Assembly (NCBI GenBank): GCA_964624585.1
Contig: CAZUXE010000001.1
Coordinates: 39,365 to 103,364, forward strand
Reading direction: 5' to 3'
Source of the DNA: an uncultured bacterium
GTDB lineage: Bacteria; Hydrothermota; Tepidihabitantia; B3-TA06
Length of the DNA: 64,000 nt
Shown: piece by piece, positions 33,529 to 44,938 of the stretch
How positions within the stretch are numbered: position 1 is the first letter of the stretch
Layout of the letters: every line of letters begins with the position of its first letter
Program-made: the position numbers and the translations under genes
Notes under the pieces: generated by a model
Database searches by the model: none
Seen by the model: only the letters and a program-made list of their open reading frames with translations
What the model was told of the DNA's origin: nothing

Positions 33529-35019
33529 TTACTTTACAGCTCTAAACGTAAATTTGATGGTCTTATTTGTATTATCCATCCCCGCAATCAAAGCCTTCAT
33601 TTTCAAGGCATCCAGCAATGGGAAAAGCTTCTCTTCAACGGCCTCTGGTGTGGCTTTTGATGTTCTGTCAGCAGCGTAGAGCATATATTCCTTAAGTTCA
33701 TCCTTAAACAATGACCAGTTGACATAGGCAACAGGGTTTTTGATGTCTGCAGATTTGCAAAAATCCCCAAACTCATCCGAGGTTTCTATAGATGCTTGCT
33801 TGGCGTTAAGCTGCCAGCCAAGCAGTAAGGAATCGTCTGCAACAGTAAGGAAGTTGTCCTTATAAATATATGTTATGGCAGGATAGACGTCTCCAAAACC
33901 AAAATAGTTAGCCTCCGTACCTATGCAACTTACTGACATTTGGTCAGCGTAAGGAAAGAGCCATGACATCAAGGCATCACAACTTTTGGCCGATTTAACG
34001 GACTCTGCTTTCAATGAAAGTAGCCAGCTTGCAGGACAATACCACTTATCAGCATCCCAGCCCTGCATAATGAATAGAACCTCATCACCGAGGTCTATGG
34101 CCAACTGGTTGATTTCCTTCTCAGTATTGATATCGCCAAACGGATTATTTTTCTTTACAGAAAGTAGTCCGGCTTCCTTCCATGCTTTATAGGCATTAAC
34201 ACCTGTTAGTTTGATGAAGCAGATGACGTCTGCCGGAACAATTTTGTAATCACGCGGTGGTTTCGCTTTGGCAATATAGCTTCCCAATACACCTGAAGGA
34301 TTATCAAATTCAACGCAGGCTTTTATTCCCAAAACATCTTTACTAATGCGCCACCTTGCTTGTGAATAAATCAGGTATTTCCCGTGATTATACGTAAGTC
34401 CATAAGCCAACGCGTCAGAAGCGTTATTTTCGTTATTAGGAAAAGCTATCTTTTCTTTTAATGTTGTTGAAGCTGCTATTTTTGCAGCCTTGGCAAGTAG
34501 GTTTTCAGAAGAGGCTAACCAGAAATAGTCACCTGCAAATAATATAGCCAAACCATCCTTATCAACAGCGCAAGGAAACCCTGAAATATTCTTTTCTTCA
34601 CCTTTGGCCAATATGGTCTTCCATACAAGCTTTACTGTCCACTTAGGTTGAGAGATAAGTAGAAAATCGTTCTTCCCGTATTGAGCGTAAATGAAACGTT
34701 TGCCAAGAATATCCCAGAAACGACCATGGGTTTTCTTCTCAATCTTTTCTATTGTTCTTAGACTGTAGAAATCTTTCTGAACACCTACTTTTTTGGCTTG
34801 ACGCCCAAGTTCTGAACCTTTATACAGCTTACTTATTTCTGCAAAATCAGCGGCAACAATGTAGCTTTCCGCGCCTTTTGGCAGCAGTTCCTCCAAGGCT
34901 CCCACTTCACGTTCTAAATTAGGAGTGCTGAATATGCACGCAAAGGCTACGCCGCTTCCTATTACAAGCGCCACCAAGATTCCTATTCCTATAATAATTC
35001 TTTTAACAGCTTTTTTCAT
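33529..35019 (-). CDS. Hypothetical periplasmic/membrane-anchored protein, last gene of the alpha-2-macroglobulin operon
   Basis: N-terminal TM/signal anchor (IIIGIGILVALVIGSGVAFA). ~470-aa soluble region with no recognised motif. Overlaps the upstream gene by 4 nt. Confidence 0.4.
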   Translation of the reverse strand: MKKAVKRIIIGIGILVALVIGSGVAFACIFSTPNLEREVGALEELLPKGAESYIVAADFAEISKLYKGSELGRQAKKVGVQKDFYSLRTIEKIEKKTHGRFWDILGKRFIYAQYGKNDFLLISQPKWTVKLVWKTILAKGEEKNISGFPCAVDKDGLAILFAGDYFWLASSENLLAKAAKIAASTTLKEKIAFPNNENNASDALAYGLTYNHGKYLIYSQARWRISKDVLGIKACVEFDNPSGVLGSYIAKAKPPRDYKIVPADVICFIKLTGVNAYKAWKEAGLLSVKKNNPFGDINTEKEINQLAIDLGDEVLFIMQGWDADKWYCPASWLLSLKAESVKSAKSCDALMSWLFPYADQMSVSCIGTEANYFGFGDVYPAITYIYKDNFLTVADDSLLLGWQLNAKQASIETSDEFGDFCKSADIKNPVAYVNWSLFKDELKEYMLYAADRTSKATPEAVEEKLFPLLDALKMKALIAGMDNTNKTIKFTFRAVK

Positions 35020-35618
35020 AAAGCCTCCTGTATAATCAGCTTAAAAAGACTATCCCTTCCAAGCTTTTCAATAGTTTTTTCAACTAGACTCGCAGCTGAC
35101 AGATAGCCGCGTTTTAATTGCAATGTATCGCTTGATGCAAGCAATTTCTTTATCTTCACAATATCCTCTGTCAAATCGTCAATATCCACATTGGCAGATA
35201 GTCCTTGAACTTCTCCAGAACAGACGACTGCCAGGCCTTCATTCATCCACAACGGAAGTTTGTAGGGACTAAGAACAAGATGCAGGTATTCGTGGGTTAT
35301 AACTTGTTCTGTAATTCCTCGTTTTTCCAGCACTCTAAAAGGTTGAAGAGTCAATTCACCGTTTATAACCGCAGCTCCTTGCCAGATGGAGCATCCGGTT
35401 AAAGCTCTGAAATCGCCTGAGGTGGCTGCAATTTTTACAACCACTGGTGAAGCAACTGGTTTAAGTCCTGAGAAGTCATAAACCCTTGCTTCAGCTCTTC
35501 TTAATACATTAACTAAGCTTGATATTTCAGAATTTACCGGACGCTCATTAGCTGTAATTATTAGCCAATTTTCAACAGGAATAACAGCGCTCAGTAATAC
35601 AAAAATCATGCCTACCAT
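35016..35618 (-). CDS. Putative zinc metallopeptidase (peptidase_MA-like: HExxH ... EGLA)
   Basis: Signal peptide. ITHEYLHLVLSPYKLPLWMNEGLAVV gives HEXXH plus a downstream Glu in an EGLA context, as in MA-clan 'peptidase_MA_2' proteins. Confidence 0.45.
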   Translation of the reverse strand: MVGMIFVLLSAVIPVENWLIITANERPVNSEISSLVNVLRRAEARVYDFSGLKPVASPVVVKIAATSGDFRALTGCSIWQGAAVINGELTLQPFRVLEKRGITEQVITHEYLHLVLSPYKLPLWMNEGLAVVCSGEVQGLSANVDIDDLTEDIVKIKKLLASSDTLQLKRGYLSAASLVEKTIEKLGRDSLFKLIIQEAL

Positions 35619-36655
35619 TTTTGAACCTCAGTACCTGGATAGTAATAAGTCAAAATTTCCCTATAATCATATCCTGCATCAGCCATTCCTTTTGCACCCC
35701 ATTGGGAAAGTCCAACCCCATGCCCAAGCCCCCTGCCTTTGAAAACATAAACCTTACCCACACGTTCAACCTTAAACCATGAACTTTTTAGTGAGTTCCA
35801 TCCCAGCTTTTGACAAACAAGCATCCGAAAATTCCAACCGCCGAACACCCGTTTTTCCTGTCTGTATTTTACAGCAATCTCTTTGACTCTTCCATCAGGA
35901 TAGGTAGATAACACTTTTAAGTCGCTTATACCCTCAAAGCCCAGCACTTGGGCGATTTTGTGCGCAGGAATATTTCTTTCCCAACGGTAATGTGGAGATT
36001 TTTTGCAAAAGGAATCCTGAACTGAAATCAAGTAAGGTGCGCATTCATCTGGCCAAATGAATGCAGCGTTTGCAGTGCTTCCTCCTGAAGTAGAATGATA
36101 GAAAATTCTACAAGGTTTATTATGATAGGTTAAAATCATCCCTTCCGTCTCTTTTACAGCTTTCAGGCTTGCAGAGCTTACCGTTTGCCTACCGCGATAA
36201 GATTGACAATGTGTCAGATCGCAAACATCCCAAGCTTCTCTTTCGTGGCGCTTTCTCTTTTCATATATAAAGGTTCTTGCAAGCACAGCCTGGGCTTTCA
36301 ATGCCTCAATTCCAGCGTTCGGAAGCATTTCTGCGCCAACAACTGAAGCAAGGTAATTCGTCTTGTCAACAGAATTCAAGAGCAGTAATTCTCCATCGTG
36401 AACCCTTGCCTTAAGCCAACCATCGTAATTACGCGACTTCGCCTTCCATTCTACCGTGAAACCTTTTGTTTCTAAAGTATAGGTATCAAGAAAGGCTCCA
36501 TTCACAAGTAACTTGTTTTGCTTCACTTGCAAGGTATCTTCGCTCTCTTCTGCTCTAATAACAGCTTTTTTTAGATGATATGAGGAAAGGATATCTATCT
36601 TAATCAGACCCGATGCCGCAAAAATTGCAAGTAGCTGAAGAATAATGTTAGTCAC
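35612..36655 (-). CDS. SpoIID/LytB-domain protein (peptidoglycan lytic transglycosylase / amidase enhancer family)
   Basis: Conserved SpoIID block (QAVLARTFIYEKRKRHEREAWDVCDLTHCQSYRG). Confidence 0.75.
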   Translation of the reverse strand: MTNIILQLLAIFAASGLIKIDILSSYHLKKAVIRAEESEDTLQVKQNKLLVNGAFLDTYTLETKGFTVEWKAKSRNYDGWLKARVHDGELLLLNSVDKTNYLASVVGAEMLPNAGIEALKAQAVLARTFIYEKRKRHEREAWDVCDLTHCQSYRGRQTVSSASLKAVKETEGMILTYHNKPCRIFYHSTSGGSTANAAFIWPDECAPYLISVQDSFCKKSPHYRWERNIPAHKIAQVLGFEGISDLKVLSTYPDGRVKEIAVKYRQEKRVFGGWNFRMLVCQKLGWNSLKSSWFKVERVGKVYVFKGRGLGHGVGLSQWGAKGMADAGYDYREILTYYYPGTEVQKW

Positions 36656-37574
36656 CGTGTCTCCGATGGAAATAATCGGAAATTACCATTCCCGCAATCT
36701 TTGCCGCATCCTTGCCTTCGCCTCTTTCCAAAAAAACCACAACGGCAATTTGGGGTTCCTCGAAGGGTGCGAACCCTGCAAACCATCCGTAAGTTCGCCA
36801 TGAACCAAGTACGGTTGAAGAACCTGTTTTACCGGCTACATTTACTTCGGCTATGTCGGCGTTTTTGCCGGTACCTGAACGTACTGCATCCCTTAAGAAC
36901 AATCTGATGTCTGCAAGACAGCTTTTTTCAGAAAAACTTGCAAGAATTTGCTGACCGCCTGGCTCAAGGTGAGGTCTTAGAAATTCGCCACCTTTGGCTA
37001 CTCCTGAAATCATAGCCAACATAGCAACAGGCGTCAACTGTAAGGCTGAACCCTGACCTATTGCAAATGCTAGTTTGGCTGAATCGTTTGCAGGAATTTG
37101 GACAATACTAGCAAGTTCCGACGGTAGGTTAACACCAACTTTGTTATTCAACCCCAAAGAGAAGTATATATCCGCTAACTCTTGCGGCTTCAGTTTATAG
37201 GCAAGATTTTGAAAATAGAGATTGCATGATGCTAACAGAGCGCGATGGAAATCCACTTTTCCGTGACCACCGCGTAATGAACATTTTAATGTATCTCCTT
37301 TCAGAAACCTATCGCCTGTACCTATTTCAAATCCCTTGCATACAAAGTTTTGGGAAAAATCAACACCTGCCTTTGCTGCCGCCATACTAGTGAGTATTTT
37401 GGCAACTGAACCAGGAGGATATCGGTGCGCAAACAGTATATCGCTATCGGTTGCCACAATAAGTCTTCCATTTCTTAAATCCATAACAGCCACAGCGCCT
37501 TTATTAGCAACTAATTCCGCACAACGTTCGCTAAAGGTTACCCCGACAGCTATAAAGAGAAGTAATAGATTCAC
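36648..37574 (-). CDS. Monofunctional penicillin-binding transpeptidase-fold protein (class-D beta-lactamase / PBP-TP-like)
   Basis: The three active-site motifs of serine penicillin-recognising enzymes appear in order and at the right spacing: SVAK (SxxK), SCN (SxN), KTGSS (KTG). Only 308 aa; no glycosyltransferase domain. Confidence 0.6.
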   Translation of the reverse strand: MNLLLLFIAVGVTFSERCAELVANKGAVAVMDLRNGRLIVATDSDILFAHRYPPGSVAKILTSMAAAKAGVDFSQNFVCKGFEIGTGDRFLKGDTLKCSLRGGHGKVDFHRALLASCNLYFQNLAYKLKPQELADIYFSLGLNNKVGVNLPSELASIVQIPANDSAKLAFAIGQGSALQLTPVAMLAMISGVAKGGEFLRPHLEPGGQQILASFSEKSCLADIRLFLRDAVRSGTGKNADIAEVNVAGKTGSSTVLGSWRTYGWFAGFAPFEEPQIAVVVFLERGEGKDAAKIAGMVISDYFHRRHGD

Positions 37575-37577
37575 AAA

Positions 37578-40500
37578 TTATTTCTCAACCACTGTGATAA
37601 TATTTTCTGCCGAATGAGCGCGTTTGTCGGAGAAGTACATAAGCGAAGCTTCGGCAGGCATGGTATGGTAAACGCCAGGCAAATACGGTTCAAGCACATA
37701 GCTGAACTCACGATGTCCCCAAAGATAGCTTATGAAGAAAGCCGTGTGATCGTCATGAAGCTCTCTGCCGGAATACATATATCCCCAATCTTCATAATCA
37801 TAGTAGCCCCACCAGTAGCGTTCGTTGCGAATACTGTAACGGTCTCTGTTTTTTGCAACCTCGAAACCTGCCGGAAGCGGGTCTTTAATCATTACATACT
37901 CATAGTCATCGTCTGCATCAACATACAGCTTAACAAACAGTGGTTCGCCAACCTTGAGCGCTCCTTCTAAGGGCAGTTTATCATAGACCAACTTATTGTT
38001 TTCTACTTTAGGAACAAGACGATAGTACTCACGGGTTATCTTCAAAGCGGAGCCTGCACTTGGGATTTCCTCTTCCTTGGAATAATATGAGAGAATCAGG
38101 CTAAAGAACAAATTGCCGCTACCTTTTTTATGCACCTTTAGGATATTATTCGCAGTAGGTTTTATAGACCTTAAATTAATAACTAAAGGCCTGTTAAATT
38201 CTGAAAGCGTGTTTGCAGAAACATTGTAGTTTGCAATAGATTTTCCATTAAGGGTAAAGTCAAGCTTCATATTAGGATTCGTATCACCGGTCGTTTTCAA
38301 AAACTCGGCAAGAGCAAGAAGAGCTAAACCCGAATCTTTAGTTGATTTCCAACGGTTACCCCTTCTTTTCCTCAAGAGCCAGAATACAACCTTTGAAACA
38401 ACTTCATCTTTAGGAGAAATTGCCAAAAACGCACGTAGCGCAGTGGCTGTGGTTTCTATAGGGTCATCATACCAGTATTCAACATTACGTACCTGCCCAG
38501 CCCAATAAACCGTTTCCTCATCTGTAATAGCGTCTTTCTTCAAACGCTTAAGTATTAGCTTGGCTGAGGCGTCATCGCCTATTTCATGATAACTCAAGGC
38601 CATCAAAGCCTTGGCGTATGGATCAACTTTTTTCTTTCGTAGAATTTTTAAGTGCTTTTCCACAACCGCTTTATTGTCTCCAGGAGCCATTGATAACGCA
38701 TAAACCATGTAAGCACGTTCAGTTACGTTTATTGTCGTATCGCGAGTTTCTAAAAGACTAGCAAGCGCAGAGCTACCTCTTTTTAACACTTTAGGGTTGA
38801 TATCGTAGCCTAATTCCTGAGCATAGGTAAGGCCATGAACTACATAAGCGGTCATGATATTCATGGTTTTATCATTTTCCCACCAGCCCCAGCCGCCGTC
38901 TGAATGTTGGTAACCGTAAAGTTTTGCCAGTCCTTTTTCAATCATCTTGGGTAATTCTTTGGCTAAGGCAGGATTACCTTTTTTGGGGTCTGCTATTAAA
39001 TCTGCAACTATTAAATCGGGAAAGAAACTTGACATAGTTTGCTCAACGCATCCGTAAGGATAGGCTGCCAGATATGAAAGTCCTGAGAATAAGGCTGAGC
39101 TAATGGTAGGGGTAAGGGTTAGTTTAGCCTGAATTGAGCTTAATTGAATTTCTTTAGGTATGCTGAAGGAACGGGTAATTTTTTGCTCTGGCTTTGGCAT
39201 AAATCCTGAAAGAAGCAAATTGCGCATAATGCCATGCGGATTAGCCGGTATGGTAAGTTGCATAGCATCAGAAGCGTCAACGCCTATGACTTTAGCGGTC
39301 ATTTTAACCTTACCTGAGGTTTCACACTTAACAGGCCAATCTACCCTGAAAGCTCCTCCTGAAGCTATAGTAGCTGTGTATGAAGTCTTTTTTGAAAACA
39401 GCTTAGCGCCATCTACCAAGAAAGAAATCTTGACGTCCTGAGTGGAATGCGTGTAGTTGTGGACAACGGTTGGAATTATCAGCGAATCACGCTCCGTCAC
39501 AAAACGCGGGGGAATAATTCTTATCAATAAATCTTTTGTTACTAAAGACTTATAACGTACTTCGCCAACCTTGCTATCCTCGGTAATCGCTTTAGCTGTA
39601 GCCCGCCAGGTAGTCAGATTATCCGGCCAAATAAGTTCAAAATTGGCTTCTCCCTTGGCGTTGGTTCTCAAGATAGCGTCCCAATAGGCCATATCTTTGA
39701 ACTTTGTTCTTATCTTAGGCTCATCTTTACCTTTATATGCTGCAAGAACAACACTATCTTTCGTCGCTGCCTTCAATTTAGCGTAGTCTTGTTCGTAGCC
39801 GTAGAATGAAAAATAGATTGATGAAGAGGTTGAAACCTGATTATAGCGTTCACCATAGAAATAATCCTTAATTGGTGAAGCAAATTCTGAAGCCAGTGAA
39901 TAGATGGCCTCATCAACAAGCCCTACCGATATATCGGCTTTAACCGGTCTATTCTTCCAATCCTTAACGAAAACCTTGAATTTAGCCTTTTCTCCGGGTT
40001 CGTACTTTTCCTTATCAGAGCTAAGCTCAATCTTAAGTAACTTAGAAGTGTCGTTGACCACCATTTTTTCAGAATGGTTGAAGAAATCGCCCTCAAATAT
40101 TCCACTAACCGATAAGTATACGTTGGGGAAATATTCAGGACGTACCTTAAACTTCAGGCGGGCAGTATTTCCCTTCATTTCAGTAATTCTAATATCGTAG
40201 AGGTCATCAGCTTCAATTGAGCTTATAACACTCGCATTCTCAAATGGATAGATAATCAGAGCTTCAGCCCAATCACCTACTTTGTAGCTTTCTTTATCGA
40301 AAACAATCTGAGTTCTGTCAACCTTCCATGTATAATAGCCGTTTCTTTCAGAAACCCAGAACCAGCGTTTATCAACATTAGTTCGTCCATTTTTATCGCT
40401 TGAGGTAGCTTTTACGTAGTAATATCCGCCTTTTTTGGGCTTGAATTTATAGATATAGACACCATTATTAGATATCCTGACGGTTCTTCTGGCAACCACT

Positions 40501-42215
40501 TCATCATCTTTATCCCAGTAATCCCTGTACACAAGCAAATCAACCTTACCGGCAACAGGTTTATTGAGGATATCGTGGGTTTTTATCTCTATTTCCGCCT
40601 CTTCACCTAAATTTACCACGTAAGATAAAGGGGTCAGGTTAACTAAAACTTCAGAAGATGCAACAAGGCTTCTAGCTTCGCCCGATTCACTGCGCCTTGA
40701 GGCATCACGAACTTGAGCTTCAAATATGTAACTGAAGTTTTTATCATTCAGAGGTAGACGATAGGAAAAAACAAGTTTCCCGTTTTCATCGGTACTAGCT
40801 TCAAGTTCATCAACATATGAAGTCCCGTACCAATAGTAGCGATGATGCTGCCTGCGATAAACCTTTAGTTTAACGTCAGCTTTAGCCACAGGAGCGCCAA
40901 AGAAGTAATCGGCGGATACGGTAATTTTTGCAATATCGCCCTGAATATAGGCCTTTTTGGCAACCTTTACTTCCACTTTAAATTCAGGCTTTCGGTACTC
41001 TTCTACCTTGAAATAAGTTGAATGACAACTACTATCAACATATGCTGTTAGGGTATACTTTCCCAGACGTGATGAAGTTGGTACTATTAATGAGTCATTA
41101 AATGCCCCCCAATCATCACTTTTCAATGTCTGACGGTATATTTCCTTTCCTTCAGGATCGGTTATTACAACTTTGGCTTCATCAACCGATGGCTTGCGAT
41201 ATTGCCCCCGCTTAAATCGCCTTATAATTCCTTTGAAGTAAACGGTTTGGTCAGGTCTGTAAATAGGACGTTCAGTATGTAAGTAGACCTTTATTTCGGT
41301 CTGTTTTTTAGGGTCAGGTATAAAACCTTCATCATCTTCATAATAATCATCATAGTAATAATCTTCATTGTCGTAATAGTAATACTTATCAAGCAGGGCA
41401 AAATTGTCTCCATCCTGAAGCAATACCTTTATATGCGATGTATCAACAGCGGTATGAAAAAGCCCCTTGGCATTTGTTCTGCCTGAAGCAAGCGTCTTTG
41501 TACCTGCAAGAACCGTTACCTTTGCACCTTTTCGAGGTTTCCCGTCTGCAGAGTTGAGTGCAAAGATGTAGACTCCTTTAGGAGTCTGCTTAGTTATTAG
41601 TGAAATATTTGAAACAACCACCGGTGTATACGCAACTTTGGTACCGTAATAAGCTTCCACCAAATATACCCCCGGCTCATCAATCCCCAAGTCTACTGTT
41701 TCATAGTGATAGCTGTTATTATAGCTGTAGTAATCGTCATTAGACTTCTTTTTCTTCACAAACTTAAAAGTCCATTCTTTAAGCAAGGGATAGCCTTTAA
41801 GTTTAGGCACACTTCCTTGAACTACGGCTTTGCGGATTTCTTTATCCGTTTTCTCCAAATTAGGTAAGCCTATGTAATCTCGTATACTTATCCTGCTTTC
41901 CTCGCTCAGCATTTCTCTAGCCAAATATCGAGAATTCCGCTTAGCGCGTTCACTTATTCCTTGTATCATATGGAAGAGATTAACCGCATCCTTATTTTGT
42001 CTAACTTTTGGTGAGTGCAAGTTCTTTTGTGATGCGAAAAATTTAGTTGGATTTTCAATTTTATATAACCTGAAATAAACCTTGTCAATACCATAGGCTT
42101 CCAGATTTATTTCAGTTTTCTCTTCAGGAGAATACAGATGAGATGCAGAAAGGTATATATCGGAATATGCAAATAACCCGCTGGTTAAAATGGATAAAAG
42201 CGCAAAAACTTTCAT
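37578..42215 (-). CDS. Bacterial alpha-2-macroglobulin (thioester-containing protease-trapping protein)
   Basis: 1545 aa with a signal peptide. Canonical thioester motif AYPYGCVEQTMSSF (CxEQ). Large multi-domain MG/TED organisation. Confidence 0.9.
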   Translation of the reverse strand: MKVFALLSILTSGLFAYSDIYLSASHLYSPEEKTEINLEAYGIDKVYFRLYKIENPTKFFASQKNLHSPKVRQNKDAVNLFHMIQGISERAKRNSRYLAREMLSEESRISIRDYIGLPNLEKTDKEIRKAVVQGSVPKLKGYPLLKEWTFKFVKKKKSNDDYYSYNNSYHYETVDLGIDEPGVYLVEAYYGTKVAYTPVVVSNISLITKQTPKGVYIFALNSADGKPRKGAKVTVLAGTKTLASGRTNAKGLFHTAVDTSHIKVLLQDGDNFALLDKYYYYDNEDYYYDDYYEDDEGFIPDPKKQTEIKVYLHTERPIYRPDQTVYFKGIIRRFKRGQYRKPSVDEAKVVITDPEGKEIYRQTLKSDDWGAFNDSLIVPTSSRLGKYTLTAYVDSSCHSTYFKVEEYRKPEFKVEVKVAKKAYIQGDIAKITVSADYFFGAPVAKADVKLKVYRRQHHRYYWYGTSYVDELEASTDENGKLVFSYRLPLNDKNFSYIFEAQVRDASRRSESGEARSLVASSEVLVNLTPLSYVVNLGEEAEIEIKTHDILNKPVAGKVDLLVYRDYWDKDDEVVARRTVRISNNGVYIYKFKPKKGGYYYVKATSSDKNGRTNVDKRWFWVSERNGYYTWKVDRTQIVFDKESYKVGDWAEALIIYPFENASVISSIEADDLYDIRITEMKGNTARLKFKVRPEYFPNVYLSVSGIFEGDFFNHSEKMVVNDTSKLLKIELSSDKEKYEPGEKAKFKVFVKDWKNRPVKADISVGLVDEAIYSLASEFASPIKDYFYGERYNQVSTSSSIYFSFYGYEQDYAKLKAATKDSVVLAAYKGKDEPKIRTKFKDMAYWDAILRTNAKGEANFELIWPDNLTTWRATAKAITEDSKVGEVRYKSLVTKDLLIRIIPPRFVTERDSLIIPTVVHNYTHSTQDVKISFLVDGAKLFSKKTSYTATIASGGAFRVDWPVKCETSGKVKMTAKVIGVDASDAMQLTIPANPHGIMRNLLLSGFMPKPEQKITRSFSIPKEIQLSSIQAKLTLTPTISSALFSGLSYLAAYPYGCVEQTMSSFFPDLIVADLIADPKKGNPALAKELPKMIEKGLAKLYGYQHSDGGWGWWENDKTMNIMTAYVVHGLTYAQELGYDINPKVLKRGSSALASLLETRDTTINVTERAYMVYALSMAPGDNKAVVEKHLKILRKKKVDPYAKALMALSYHEIGDDASAKLILKRLKKDAITDEETVYWAGQVRNVEYWYDDPIETTATALRAFLAISPKDEVVSKVVFWLLRKRRGNRWKSTKDSGLALLALAEFLKTTGDTNPNMKLDFTLNGKSIANYNVSANTLSEFNRPLVINLRSIKPTANNILKVHKKGSGNLFFSLILSYYSKEEEIPSAGSALKITREYYRLVPKVENNKLVYDKLPLEGALKVGEPLFVKLYVDADDDYEYVMIKDPLPAGFEVAKNRDRYSIRNERYWWGYYDYEDWGYMYSGRELHDDHTAFFISYLWGHREFSYVLEPYLPGVYHTMPAEASLMYFSDKRAHSAENIITVVEK

Positions 42216-42241
42216 AATGAACCCTCCTTTAGGTTCAGAAA

Positions 42242-42958
42242 CTATATTAAAATCTTAAATCTGTAGAATCCGGCAAAGGCAGGATTAGTCTCAACCGGAC
42301 GCCAAATTTCATTATCTAAAGCAAGTAAGGTTTCAAACTTAATTAAACGCATTTCCCCTTCCTTAACCTCTCCGTTTGCTTCATCAATACCCGGGCCTGT
42401 GTGATAAAGAAGGTAGGGTCTAGACCTAAGTTCTATATATATCATCACATGCGCTTCTTTGCCTTTGGGGGTAAAAAAAAGCAAATCGCCGGACTTTATT
42501 TTCTCATCCAATTTTCTGCTTAAAAAAACTGTATGATGCTCCATTAAATGACGCACGTCTGCAAAGTTATTTAATTTTCCCCTTTTTCTGTCTCCTGTTT
42601 GATAAGAGCCATCAGCTACCCTAAAGATATCTGTACCTATATATGGTATCTCTGGATAATGAAAGGCTTCTATTTCCGGAATTGTGCGCTCTACTAGATT
42701 ACCAAAACTTTTCCGCCAGTTAGCGTTATGCGCCTTAAGCGCTTCCCTGTAAGAAAAAAGAACCAAATTAGTACAATCTGCAACTTCATCTGTTGGATTT
42801 AGGTAGCGTGAAAGGGCAATTGTGGTAAACCAGCGACGAAAATTACGACGATCGGCATTTGTTTTCAACTCAGCAAGATCAGGAAAACCGTCTGAATCTG
42901 TATCAAGCGGTTGATGTGGGTTCAGGGCTAAAAATAGCGCTATAAGTGCAGTGTGCAT
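42242..42958 (-). CDS. Secreted hypothetical protein co-transcribed upstream of the A2M gene (possibly DUF1175/YfaT-like)
   Basis: Signal peptide. Calcium-binding-like DTDSDGFPD motif. 26-nt gap to the A2M start. The family assignment rests on memory of an A2M-neighbour family and is not verified. Confidence 0.35.
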   Translation of the reverse strand: MHTALIALFLALNPHQPLDTDSDGFPDLAELKTNADRRNFRRWFTTIALSRYLNPTDEVADCTNLVLFSYREALKAHNANWRKSFGNLVERTIPEIEAFHYPEIPYIGTDIFRVADGSYQTGDRKRGKLNNFADVRHLMEHHTVFLSRKLDEKIKSGDLLFFTPKGKEAHVMIYIELRSRPYLLYHTGPGIDEANGEVKEGEMRLIKFETLLALDNEIWRPVETNPAFAGFYRFKILI

Positions 42959-43282
42959 TAGTACTTACCTCCAAATATAGGTCGTTGCAGAACAAATGCC
43001 AACCAACTTCCACCCTAGCTGACTCACTCCAGAATACCAAATACGATAAAAAGAGTCGTATTAATCTGGTGTTGCCCCAAATTATTTGGGCTAAGCAAAG
43101 TATTACAGTATAGTTGTAAGAACAAAGCTTGTCAAGTATTAAATTGTGAGCTAGCTAAAGAGAGGTTCTTAAAACTTAAACAGCTTGACAAAAAAATCTT
43201 TTCAGATATTCTTTAAGTTATATGGGAGAACAGTATTAAACTGCCTCCTTAAAAAGCATGACTCAAGGAGGATTGTCAGGTA

Positions 43283-44938
43283 ATGAGTATAATTATTTTA
43301 ATGTTTCTAACTTTATCTGCGTCTGAAAGTAAGCATAATGTAGGCTCGTCATTTCAGGAATACAGTCTTATTAAACGTAGCGAAATATATCTTCACCGCC
43401 TAAAATTAGGTGGCAGACCGTGGTCAAAAAATCTTAACGTAGGTTTTCGTTTTGCACACCTGCCTAACGGAAACTCCTTTTTGTTTGAAAGGGATAAGAA
43501 TAACTTTGGAAGGGCGTACTTTTTTAAGCCTAATGGTGAACTAAATAAAAGCATTTTGCTTAAAATACCTAGTAGGCTTAGCCCAAAAGGAAAACCCGAC
43601 GATTTAGCTTCAATAACAAATACCCTTACCAATTCATATAATAATTTTCTAACTTATGATCTTTCTTTTGGAAAACTAAAATTATGGGATGCTAGAGGAA
43701 ATCTGGTTCGCAATTTCTTTCTACCAAGTAACCCTGATTTTAATCCCGATAAACTCATATTAACAGGCAGTTTTGACTATAACACCTTGGCTTTTGGATG
43801 TTTCTATCTTACATACGAAGAGGGCAAGTCCATTTGTGTACCCAAAGCCCTGGTTTTTGACCAAAACGACACATTAAAACCTCCGCTTGAGGTTATTTTA
43901 TTAAAAGATACTACAAAACTACCTGAAGACCCCGGTCCTTATTATATTGTACAAGTAAACGTTATTTCAGAAGATTTAACAGCCTGTTATGTTACCGATT
44001 ACCCAGAGCTTTACTTAATACGCAAGGATGGCACTGTTCTTCGGGAAAATACAGTTCCCCCCCATTTTCGTTCAATTGAAGACGCCGCCCCACCACCTGT
44101 ACGAAAAGATACAGAATGCGGATGTAAGAATATTAATGATGATGATGGATACTTTTTAGAAGCAATGGAGGAATGGGTTAGTACATGGACACATTCCATT
44201 GTAGCCCCCTACAAGTACTTAAATAATACCCTGATAGTCCCAAGAGAGCGTGATTCAACATCTTATCTTGATATGTATTCATACTCTAAAGACAGCGTTT
44301 CTTACCTAGGGTACGCTTCTATTGATAATAAAAAGTTCCTGTTTGCCGATACTTCCGGCGTATTCATGCTTGAAAGAAAAGACGATACTTGTGTAGTTGT
44401 AGGTAAATACAGCATAATAACACCGGACTACAGGGAAAGTCGCCCCGGTGGATGGAGCAATGCTAATTTGAACTATGAACAATTGGCCGGTATCCACAAG
44501 GTTCCTGCAAATAAGCAAGAAAAACCGCCTAAACCTCCTTTGGAAACAAATATAAGTACACTCAAACTGCTCTCTTCTGATAGTATTGAGTACTCTTTAA
44601 TAGATTCTTTGAGCAATGGTAAAAATCATGTAATCTTGTTTGTAGCTCCTGAAAATTACTTCGCTAATAAAGGTTTTAAGGCGGCTCAAAAATACTGGTT
44701 AAACGATAGTACAAACTCTGATTTTACCGTAGTTTATATTTACCCCTATCCTGACGAATTTATGCCCCTTAGGCGTTTGATGCAATGTAATCATCCTATT
44801 TTCACCGATATCAAGTCTAGTAATTTGAAACCATTTATGCGAAAAGAAGTAAGTTTTCTTATTGTCTCAAAGGATGGAACTGTTAGCTCAATTGCAGATT
44901 ACCCTGATTTTGAGCTAAAACCTGTAGAAGAGAAATAA
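43283..44938 (+). CDS. Hypothetical secreted protein (551 aa)
   Basis: Signal peptide and RBS caaggagg. No recognised domain. Followed by a strong terminator. Confidence 0.4.
   Translation: MSIIILMFLTLSASESKHNVGSSFQEYSLIKRSEIYLHRLKLGGRPWSKNLNVGFRFAHLPNGNSFLFERDKNNFGRAYFFKPNGELNKSILLKIPSRLSPKGKPDDLASITNTLTNSYNNFLTYDLSFGKLKLWDARGNLVRNFFLPSNPDFNPDKLILTGSFDYNTLAFGCFYLTYEEGKSICVPKALVFDQNDTLKPPLEVILLKDTTKLPEDPGPYYIVQVNVISEDLTACYVTDYPELYLIRKDGTVLRENTVPPHFRSIEDAAPPPVRKDTECGCKNINDDDGYFLEAMEEWVSTWTHSIVAPYKYLNNTLIVPRERDSTSYLDMYSYSKDSVSYLGYASIDNKKFLFADTSGVFMLERKDDTCVVVGKYSIITPDYRESRPGGWSNANLNYEQLAGIHKVPANKQEKPPKPPLETNISTLKLLSSDSIEYSLIDSLSNGKNHVILFVAPENYFANKGFKAAQKYWLNDSTNSDFTVVYIYPYPDEFMPLRRLMQCNHPIFTDIKSSNLKPFMRKEVSFLIVSKDGTVSSIADYPDFELKPVEEK

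Follow-up and report, generated by a model that had tools for sequence, protein, structure and literature searches.

The window analysed here is a 64,000-nucleotide stretch of contig CAZUXE010000001.1 (assembly GCA_964624585.1) from an uncultured bacterium of the GTDB lineage B3-TA06, and the subject of the analysis is a cluster of six co-oriented open reading frames (ORFs) on its minus strand, running from position 42958 to 33529, which includes a thioester-containing alpha-2-macroglobulin (A2M). The genes, in 5' to 3' order on the minus strand and with product lengths in amino acids (aa), are as follows:

42242..42958, minus strand: MagC/YfaT-like protein, 238 aa, with DUF1175, an NlpC/P60-like fold and a signal peptide
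37578..42215, minus strand: A2M of the MagD/YfaS lineage, 1545 aa, with a signal peptide and without a lipobox cysteine
39039..39059, minus strand: thioester motif PYGCVEQ, aa 1053-1059 of the A2M, in its TED domain
36648..37574, minus strand: free-standing transpeptidase domain of the class B penicillin-binding protein (PBP) type, 308 aa, with a hydrophobic N-terminus; apparent counterpart of YfaQ/MagE residues ~1-240
35612..36655, minus strand: predicted SpoIID/LytB-type lytic transglycosylase, 347 aa; apparent counterpart of YfaQ/MagE residues ~300-445
35016..35618, minus strand: predicted minimal gluzincin-like metallopeptidase (HExxH protein), 200 aa, with HEYLH at 109-113 and NEGLA at 126-130
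33529..35019, minus strand: 496-aa protein with one N-terminal transmembrane helix (residues ~8-30 hydrophobic), the last gene of the cluster

The first two gaps measure 26 and 3 nt, the remaining genes overlap by 8, 7 and 4 nt, and all six products are predicted to be exported. The orientation, coordinates and spacing are those reported in the initial annotation of this DNA, and the motifs named there were all found in place: PYGCVEQ, the SxxK/SxN/KTG triad, HEYLH…NEGLA, the DxDxDG-type motif (DTDSDGFPD, in the N-terminal part of the 238-aa protein) and the N-terminal anchor of the 496-aa protein.

As judged from sequence comparison, the locus is the form that the Mag/Yfa-type (MagD-type) A2M operon takes in WOR-3, Stahlbacteria and TA06, and a deep-branching one. 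It is placed with the Mag/Yfa operons, and not read as a rearranged A2M-PBP1c pair, because a MagC gene lies upstream, the A2M has no lipobox and its sequence is nearer to MagD/YfaS than to ECAM (YfhM). The magABCDEF operon of Pseudomonas aeruginosa consists of the same families as the Escherichia coli yfa operon (PMC3735191), the latter comprising yfaA (DUF2138), yfaT (DUF1175), yfaS (A2M), yfaQ (labelled 'tandem DUF2300'; COG5445) and yfaP (DUF2135). The initial annotation had presented the cluster as standing in place of the canonical A2M-PBP1c pair, which proved to be the wrong comparator, given that the 238-aa protein is MagC/YfaT, that the A2M belongs nearer to MagD/YfaS and that three of the remaining genes would together make up MagE/YfaQ.

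The product of the first gene matched Pfam DUF1175 (PF06672) at E 1e-46 and NLPC_P60 at E 1e-5, and its sole match in the Protein Data Bank (PDB) was MagC of P. aeruginosa (7BK8, E 6e-14). Its residues Cys62, His170 and His186, a Cys/His/His set of the NlpC/P60 type, are kept in E. coli YfaT in the alignment. MagC of P. aeruginosa has been studied structurally; it reportedly attaches to peptidoglycan but does not break it down. Searching 185,579 species genomes with an alignment of MagC brought up 69 loci, and the canonical mag order was observed in about 55 proteobacterial loci as well as in one Schekmanbacteria and one Magnetaquicoccus locus. The arrangement seen in the window, in which the MagC-like gene lies directly upstream of the A2M gene in the same orientation, is shared with some 55 canonical loci.

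The A2M contains the full bacterial domain series recognised by Pfam (MG2, MG3, A2M_BRD, A2M, TED_complement and bMG10), and its PDB matches were CD109, A2M, Sa-A2M and ECAM. Its N-terminus (MKVFALLSILTSGLFAYSD) is devoid of Cys in the first 40 residues, so that no lipobox is present, whereas the N-terminus of ECAM/YfhM has a ...LALAGC lipobox. By BLASTP it is 24% identical to A2Ms of the MagD/YfaS type (E 1e-58 to 1e-71, the latter value for MagD of P. paraeruginosa) and 20% identical to ECAM/YfhM (E 2e-24), while its identity to the A2Ms of the Acidobacteriota-type loci considered below is 31%.

Type II bacterial A2Ms, the class of the Mag/Yfa operons, are described as those in which CxEQ is absent (PMC3735191, PMC5764988). 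The window A2M does not conform to this description, as PYGCVEQ is present. GC[VT]EQ occurs in the A2Ms of the window and of its WOR-3 and Acidobacteriota relatives, and the thioester Cys is also kept, as PYGC[VA]EQ, in at least 14 canonical mag loci (L016-L019, L021, L022, L025, L032, L035, L039, L053, L054, L063 and L069), which include several Pseudomonas species, a Rhodocyclaceae metagenome-assembled genome, Schekmanbacteria and Magnetaquicoccus. GGVEQ was found in 22 canonical loci, P. paraeruginosa among them, and the P. aeruginosa group has PYGGVEQ, with a Gly of MagD at the Cys position. A thioester in a Mag-type operon is not unique to the window, and the literature rule that type II A2Ms are without one fails across the family; since at least 14 canonical mag loci possess CxEQ, the motif does not diagnose type I.

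These data bear directly on whether the cluster might be a variant of the type I A2M-PBP1c pair in which the activities of PBP1c have been divided among small proteins. PBP1c is not adjacent to the A2M gene, as had already been stated in the initial annotation, and no GT51 domain was detected in the six operon proteins or in 8 proteins encoded beside them (out of 11 flanking ORFs of at least 80 aa). SpoIID is a glycan-cleaving lytic transglycosylase (PMC6221140), and the earlier proposal that a separate small protein supplies the glycan-strand activity of PBP1c was therefore abandoned: SpoIID enzymes cleave glycan strands instead of polymerising them, and the glycosyltransferase activity of PBP1c is thus not provided by the operon. 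The transpeptidase resembles class B enzymes (PBP2/SpoVD) and gave no BLASTP match to PbpC at E 1e-3, the A2M departs from YfhM in the two respects given above, and MagC, a hallmark of the Mag operons, lies upstream. The type I explanation draws on the CxEQ thioester, which is typical of type I A2Ms but equally present in at least 14 canonical mag operons, and on the transpeptidase gene following directly after the A2M gene, as pbpC follows yfhM in E. coli; it is largely refuted, and we accord it hardly any probability.

The 308-aa protein matched PF00905 Transpeptidase over residues 26-295 (E 3e-39; 135 bits against a cutoff of 22) and the transpeptidase region of pbp2_mrdA (TIGR03423) at E 5e-41, and its best PDB matches were SpoVD (E 8e-20) and PBP2. 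The active-site motifs read S56-V-A-K59, S116-C-N118 and K249-T-G251 and are kept in its relatives and in the fusion proteins described below. The transpeptidase domain starts at residue 26 and is not preceded by a pedestal domain (PF03717 and PF21922 are absent), unlike in longer homologues. A class D (OXA) beta-lactamase in an unconserved neighbourhood, which the initial annotation had named as an outcome that would overturn its view, was considered and rejected, the OXA models giving E 2e-3 and 15-17 bits against cutoffs of 620-625; the protein is of the PBP type and its neighbourhood is conserved. Transpeptidase-only proteins of ~325-340 aa, about 35-37% identical to that of the window, are also encoded on three KSB1-type contigs (L002, L003 and L004), where the genes adjoin EutN/CcmL and DeoC and no A2M is linked. 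Because these copies are not beside an A2M gene, a free-standing transpeptidase alone is no marker of the system.

The 347-aa protein was assigned to SpoIID_LytB (TIGR02669) at E 4e-65 (220 bits against a cutoff of 83) and matched the PDB entry of SpoIID, 4RWR, at E 2e-29. In an alignment with SpoIID of Clostridioides difficile, in which E101 is catalytic and C140/H145/C146 form a zinc site (PMC6221140), E109 of the window protein falls on E101 and C145/H149/C150 fall on C140/H145/C146. In the 200-aa protein, H109, E110, H113 and E127 are invariant among 17 homologues, and Pfam Peptidase_MA_2 gave a weak match (E 0.008, 16 bits) below the cutoff of 32. Its AlphaFold2 (AF2) model reached a predicted local distance difference test (pLDDT) score of 84, and a Foldseek search of the PDB placed the catalytic domains of M9 collagenases, M30 lugdulysin and M1 aminopeptidases at the top, with TMq values of 0.46-0.62 and E-values of 2e-3 or weaker. 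The domains anticipated in the initial annotation were thus recovered as regards DUF1175, the A2M series, Transpeptidase and SpoIID_LytB, whereas Peptidase_MA_2 appeared only below its cutoff.

Taken together, the transpeptidase, SpoIID and HExxH genes appear by their sequences to be the counterpart of MagE/YfaQ, a conclusion on which gene fusions, profile-profile comparison and the independent literature agree. In three loci of the Acidobacteriota type (L012, L014 and L015), the genes for MagC and a thioester A2M precede that for a single protein of 855-1000 aa in which transpeptidase, SpoIID and HExxH modules succeed each other in the gene order of the window (transpeptidase Pfam E 1e-34 to 1e-36; SpoIID E 1e-18 to 1e-20). 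A metagenome scan with these fused proteins yielded 142 relatives, and the counts given here cover the 80 loci that were retrieved (L078-L157). An A2M gene lay upstream of the fusion in 41 of the 43 metagenome loci whose upstream sequence reached 2.5 kb or more, MagC was also present in 14 of the 16 fusion loci with at least 7.5 kb, and a ~270-aa polytopic membrane protein was encoded between A2M and fusion in every one of the 52 metagenome loci possessing both.

Some details of these loci deserve a separate record. The ~270-aa polytopic protein (L012:15680-16507, L014:15742-16590 and L015:8810-9586) has no Pfam match. L140, L142 and L147 are rare exceptions to the common arrangement, comprising two transpeptidase-SpoIID fusions without an A2M within 4-5.6 kb upstream and one short contig on which the fusion gene comes straight after that of MagC, without an intervening A2M. 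Locus L015 stems from a metagenome-assembled genome labelled 'uncultured Heliobacteriaceae bacterium', although its architecture is of the Acidobacteriota type and its proteins are closest to those of Acidobacteriota loci; a periplasmic system of the diderm type in a bin labelled as Firmicutes suggests a mis-binned contig or a mislabelled genome.

Profile-profile comparison with hhalign aligned the transpeptidase family with YfaQ residues ~1-240 (probability 93.7%, E 2e-7), with GSVAK on GSLWK, SCN on SCG and KTG on KTW, and the SpoIID family with residues 303-360 (probability 81%, E 1e-5) and also with 423-445; YfaQ itself scores above the Pfam SpoIID threshold. A hidden Markov model (HMM) of the YfaQ family, searched against 4,812 ORFs, detected a WOR-3 SpoIID protein at E 6e-5 and, as its only transpeptidase match, the relative in L010 at E 2e-3; the window SpoIID protein was matched at E 3e-5. 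For the third module, ITHEYLHLVLSPY of the 200-aa protein aligns with LTHEYLHLAFDGY of YfaQ, and hhalign against the YfaQ C-terminus gave a probability of 39-56% (E 1e-4 to 3e-4), with no direct Pfam DUF2300 match to the 200-aa protein and no similarity between the HExxH family and YfaP/DUF2135. The probable counterpart of the 200-aa protein in YfaQ/MagE is the C-terminal HEYLHL module (DUF2300). The make-up of YfaQ has been noted independently, its N-terminus being transpeptidase-like and its C-terminus SpoIID-like by HHpred and structure prediction (bioRxiv 10.1101/2025.02.11.637708). When profiles of its C-terminal part were compared with those of its N-terminal and middle parts no similarity emerged, so that the label 'tandem DUF2300' is not matched by any repeat detectable within the protein.

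In three loci the MagE position is occupied by a reduced protein of 133-135 aa with HEYLHL and without the transpeptidase-like and SpoIID-like parts, namely in Schekmanbacteria (L063:15144-15545), Magnetaquicoccus (L069:12834-13238) and Serratia microhaemolytica (L030:15328-15735), and the reduced modules of the first two match Pfam DUF2300. Since these loci retain the HEYLHL module alone, the HExxH module would appear to be the part of MagE most tightly tied to the A2M.

Across 42 YfaQ/MagE sequences SxxK retains its Ser and Lys and KTx its K-T in every case, as do the SpoIID domain its Glu and the C-terminal module its HEYLH (100% each), while SxN has become S-C-G and KTG has become K-T-W. 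The latter substitutions suggest lost or changed transpeptidase chemistry in Proteobacteria, and it might be supposed that the enzyme-like accessory proteins are decoys, sensors or scaffolds by which the A2M is brought to damaged sites in the wall or triggered there, the penicillin-binding fold sensing muropeptides or beta-lactams in the manner of BlaR and the SpoIID fold merely binding glycan, especially as MagA, MagB and MagF act as structural partners of MagD (PMC5764988). The window proteins and the fusions tell against such a role: SxxK, SxN, KTG, the SpoIID Glu and Zn site and HExxH with its additional Glu are all intact, a pattern expected of active enzymes, and even the YfaQ family has kept its nucleophile Ser, the Lys, the SpoIID Glu and the HExxH without exception. 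We regard a purely non-catalytic function as highly improbable.

The last gene always occupies the final position in the cluster. Its 496-aa product has no Pfam or NCBIfam match, and its family numbers only 15 relatives among 1.84 billion representative proteins; DUF3352 (PF11832) matches two distant relatives, at E 1e-5 and E 2e-6 (a score that in one case only just reaches the cutoff), and none of the 9 close members. A membrane protein is found in each variant of the system, be it MagB, the ~270-aa polytopic protein or the 496-aa protein. In P. aeruginosa MagB is a membrane anchor which stabilises MagD (PMC5764988). On account of its topology, its membership of the operon and the occurrence of some membrane protein in every variant, the 496-aa protein is a candidate inner-membrane anchor that may fill a role like that of MagB.

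The identical six-gene order was also found at L001/L009, L006, L076 and L077, and L010 shows the same order up to the end of its contig after gene 5; the proteins of the window are 42-67% identical to those of the related clusters, which belong to five other genomes of WOR-3, Stahlbacteria and TA06. In L076 and L077 the cluster occupies the same chromosomal position as in the window, with PTPS, DUF4416, ScpB and AlaRS downstream. This recurrence is far beyond chance: the genes form a conserved unit, and the association described in the initial annotation, of a thioester A2M with enzymes that act on peptidoglycan and with a candidate protease, was borne out. For the transpeptidase, the HExxH protein and the 496-aa protein alike, the closest homologues derive from candidate division WOR-3, Stahlbacteria and TA06, and as far as sampled the split form of the operon is limited to these groups. 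Upstream neighbours differ in L001, L076 and L077, whereby the operon unit is delimited to exactly six genes. A divergent 551-aa ORF on the plus strand of the window (43283-44938), which has no Pfam or PADLOC match and whose position is not kept in relatives, was accordingly rejected as a seventh component. In the TA06 genome represented by L076, the downstream synteny of which with the window is perfect, a phage-type integrase gene (L076:118-1395) lies directly upstream of the MagC gene, which hints that the upstream border of the operon is an insertion hot-spot.

In the Enterobacteria, yfaS of E. coli K-12 MG1655 (L005:5799-10403) is annotated as a pseudogene, and the yfa operon is fragmented in Shigella flexneri (L072) and in one E. 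coli strain (L070). Some lineages of enterobacteria thus seem prone to decay of the Mag/Yfa system.

Regarding expression, good Shine-Dalgarno sequences precede the MagC-like and A2M genes, and one promoter-like element was located:

43107..43135, minus strand: sigma-70-like promoter match (TTGACA-17-TATACT, 11/12), ~150 nt upstream of the first gene; a consensus match only

Sigma-70-like matches in the region do not exceed the number expected from shuffled sequence, and a terminator scan found none that was convincing after the gene of the 496-aa protein. An Rfam search of the operon and its leader returned no match at E <= 0.1, and none of the six proteins was matched by PADLOC.

The best explanation of the whole, which we consider probable, is that the cluster represents a Mag/Yfa-type operon with a split MagE and encodes an envelope-defence and repair complex. 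By analogy with the characterised operons, its function would be that of an inner-membrane-tethered periplasmic complex for defence and peptidoglycan repair, in which the thioester A2M would capture foreign hydrolases that cross the outer membrane, MagC might hold the complex on peptidoglycan or trim stem peptides, SpoIID would clear damaged or denuded glycan strands and the transpeptidase would re-crosslink the wall. The HExxH module may serve as a dedicated processing or activating protease of the A2M, and it is probably the 496-aa protein that attaches the assembly to the inner membrane, the part played by MagB in Pseudomonas. This proposal derives from four observations: the P. aeruginosa mag operon protects against the peptidoglycan-targeting type VI secretion system (T6SS) effectors VgrG3 and Tae1 by a mechanism left unexplained in that 2025 report (PMC12663445); MagB anchors the system, and deletion of magE blocks the processing of MagD from 165 to 100 kDa (PMC5764988); deletion of yfaQ makes the cells wider and groups with mutants in peptidoglycan and the envelope (bioRxiv 10.1101/2025.02.11.637708); and the HExxH module persists in reduced operons.

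A number of points weigh against this explanation and are best considered together. SpoIID normally requires an amidase partner which generates denuded strands. The YfaQ HMM gave no match to the window transpeptidase at E<=1, and because the L010 relative alone was matched by it, the link between the transpeptidase and YfaQ is mainly one of profile-profile comparison; that between the HExxH protein and DUF2300 consists of a short motif and positional equivalence, the alignment not being statistically strong. DUF2135 (MagA/MagF/YfaP) is missing, in that a YfaP-family HMM found no member among the window ORFs of at least 60 aa. The comparison of the 496-aa family with YfaA/DUF2138 (MagB) by hhalign, distant relatives included, returned a probability of 0.2-0.3%, and the AF2 model of the 496-aa protein, built from a 9-sequence alignment, had a pLDDT of 41 and was unusable. 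Co-transcription of the six genes would follow from their spacing only, and complex formation, catalysis and a part in defence are carried over from Pseudomonas and E. coli; a membrane-associated complex around an A2M is known only for P. aeruginosa (PMC5764988).

Among the five accessory proteins, four have homologues that are peptidoglycan enzymes or peptidases and keep the motifs intact, and the locus lies among housekeeping genes at a fixed chromosomal position, both of which would also suit a housekeeping system of peptidoglycan remodelling in cell shape, division or turnover, a cut-and-patch device akin to SpoIID/SpoIIP and made up of NlpC/P60, lytic transglycosylase, transpeptidase and metallopeptidase, in which the A2M would not trap foreign enzymes but regulate or inhibit the protease or hydrolases of the cluster itself. 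The yfaQ deletion phenotype in E. coli arises without an attacker, and the MagE-dependent processing of MagD takes place in vivo (PMC5764988), which is compatible with such a role. Protection by the mag operon against incoming T6SS effectors that target peptidoglycan is, on the other hand, demonstrated (PMC12663445), and MagD traps a protease in vitro (PMC5764988). The system is, moreover, sparse and dispensable, yfaS being a pseudogene in E. coli K-12 and yfaQ missing from some E. coli sequence types (bioRxiv 10.1101/2025.02.11.637708), and a thioester trap would be a costly means of regulating one's own enzymes. On balance a housekeeping role appears unlikely, and the defence-and-repair complex remains the preferred explanation.

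A broader and more tentative extension, for which we would claim no great likelihood, is that Mag-type A2M systems in general are peptidoglycan damage-response machines, in which MagE would be an active three-enzyme subunit and not a chaperone, and its HExxH module would cleave and arm the A2M. If true, the WOR-3 operon would display this system with its enzymes separate and intact, and the protection afforded by mag against peptidoglycan-targeting T6SS effectors would be explained.

The initial annotation regarded the arrangement as undescribed, which holds in part. The Mag operon was already known and the make-up of YfaQ was noted in 2025 (bioRxiv 10.1101/2025.02.11.637708), yet no paper was found on split or fused enzyme-intact variants or on their association with an A2M; a literature search of incomplete coverage likewise retrieved neither a paper in which SpoIID, or a PBP transpeptidase in free or fused form, is connected with A2M operons nor a description of the Acidobacteriota-type fusion loci. 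What is new is a Mag-type operon that has MagE divided over three enzyme-intact genes, encodes a thioester A2M and a membrane partner of unrelated sequence, and is devoid of DUF2135. Bacterial A2Ms are widespread, though the accessory proteins of the Mag/Yfa systems have so far been treated as proteins without an assigned function or as stabilisers of MagD. In the window operon and the Acidobacteriota-type fusions the downstream partner of the A2M combines a PBP transpeptidase with a SpoIID lytic transglycosylase and an HExxH peptidase, of which MagE/YfaQ keeps the key residues, and this leads to testable hypotheses, namely that peptidoglycan repair is coupled to protease trapping and that the HExxH module of MagE processes MagD. 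The operon offers these enzymes in naturally separate form, such that each may be expressed and assayed singly. The textbook division into type I, with thioester and PBP1c, and type II, with neither, is too simple, and the interest of the locus lies chiefly in what it says of MagE and of the purpose of Mag systems, for which it points to cell-wall repair, and less in a new category of system.

Among known systems, the SpoIID-SpoIIP engulfment machinery shares with the window operon the SpoIID fold, the catalytic Glu, the Zn site (as in C. difficile) and the pairing with a partner of the peptidoglycan peptidase or amidase type; SpoIIP and SpoIIM are absent from the operon, the partner is the NlpC/P60-like MagC, and the setting is an A2M operon in a non-sporulating candidate phylum. 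The type I ECAM (YfhM)-PBP1c pair resembles the cluster in that a CxEQ A2M stands beside a penicillin-binding transpeptidase and a protease trap is combined with peptidoglycan enzymes, but ECAM is a 1653-aa lipoprotein (LAGC lipobox) and PBP1c a bifunctional synthase with GT51 and transpeptidase domains, and the pair is without the MagC, SpoIID, HExxH and additional membrane proteins of the operon. With the Mag/Yfa (type II) operons the cluster has in common the upstream MagC, the A2M without a lipobox, the apparent MagE-equivalent genes downstream, a single-pass membrane protein and export of the products. It differs from them in having three genes, each with a full set of catalytic motifs, in place of one MagE/YfaQ protein, in having the 496-aa protein at the end of the operon, without detectable homology to DUF2138, in place of the membrane protein MagB/YfaA (DUF2138), and in carrying a thioester Cys where MagD of P. 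aeruginosa has Gly. The Acidobacteriota-type loci, finally, share with the window the same core of MagC and thioester A2M and the same three modules in the same order with intact motifs, and are set apart by the fusion of these modules into one protein and by a ~270-aa polytopic protein in place of the 496-aa single-pass protein.

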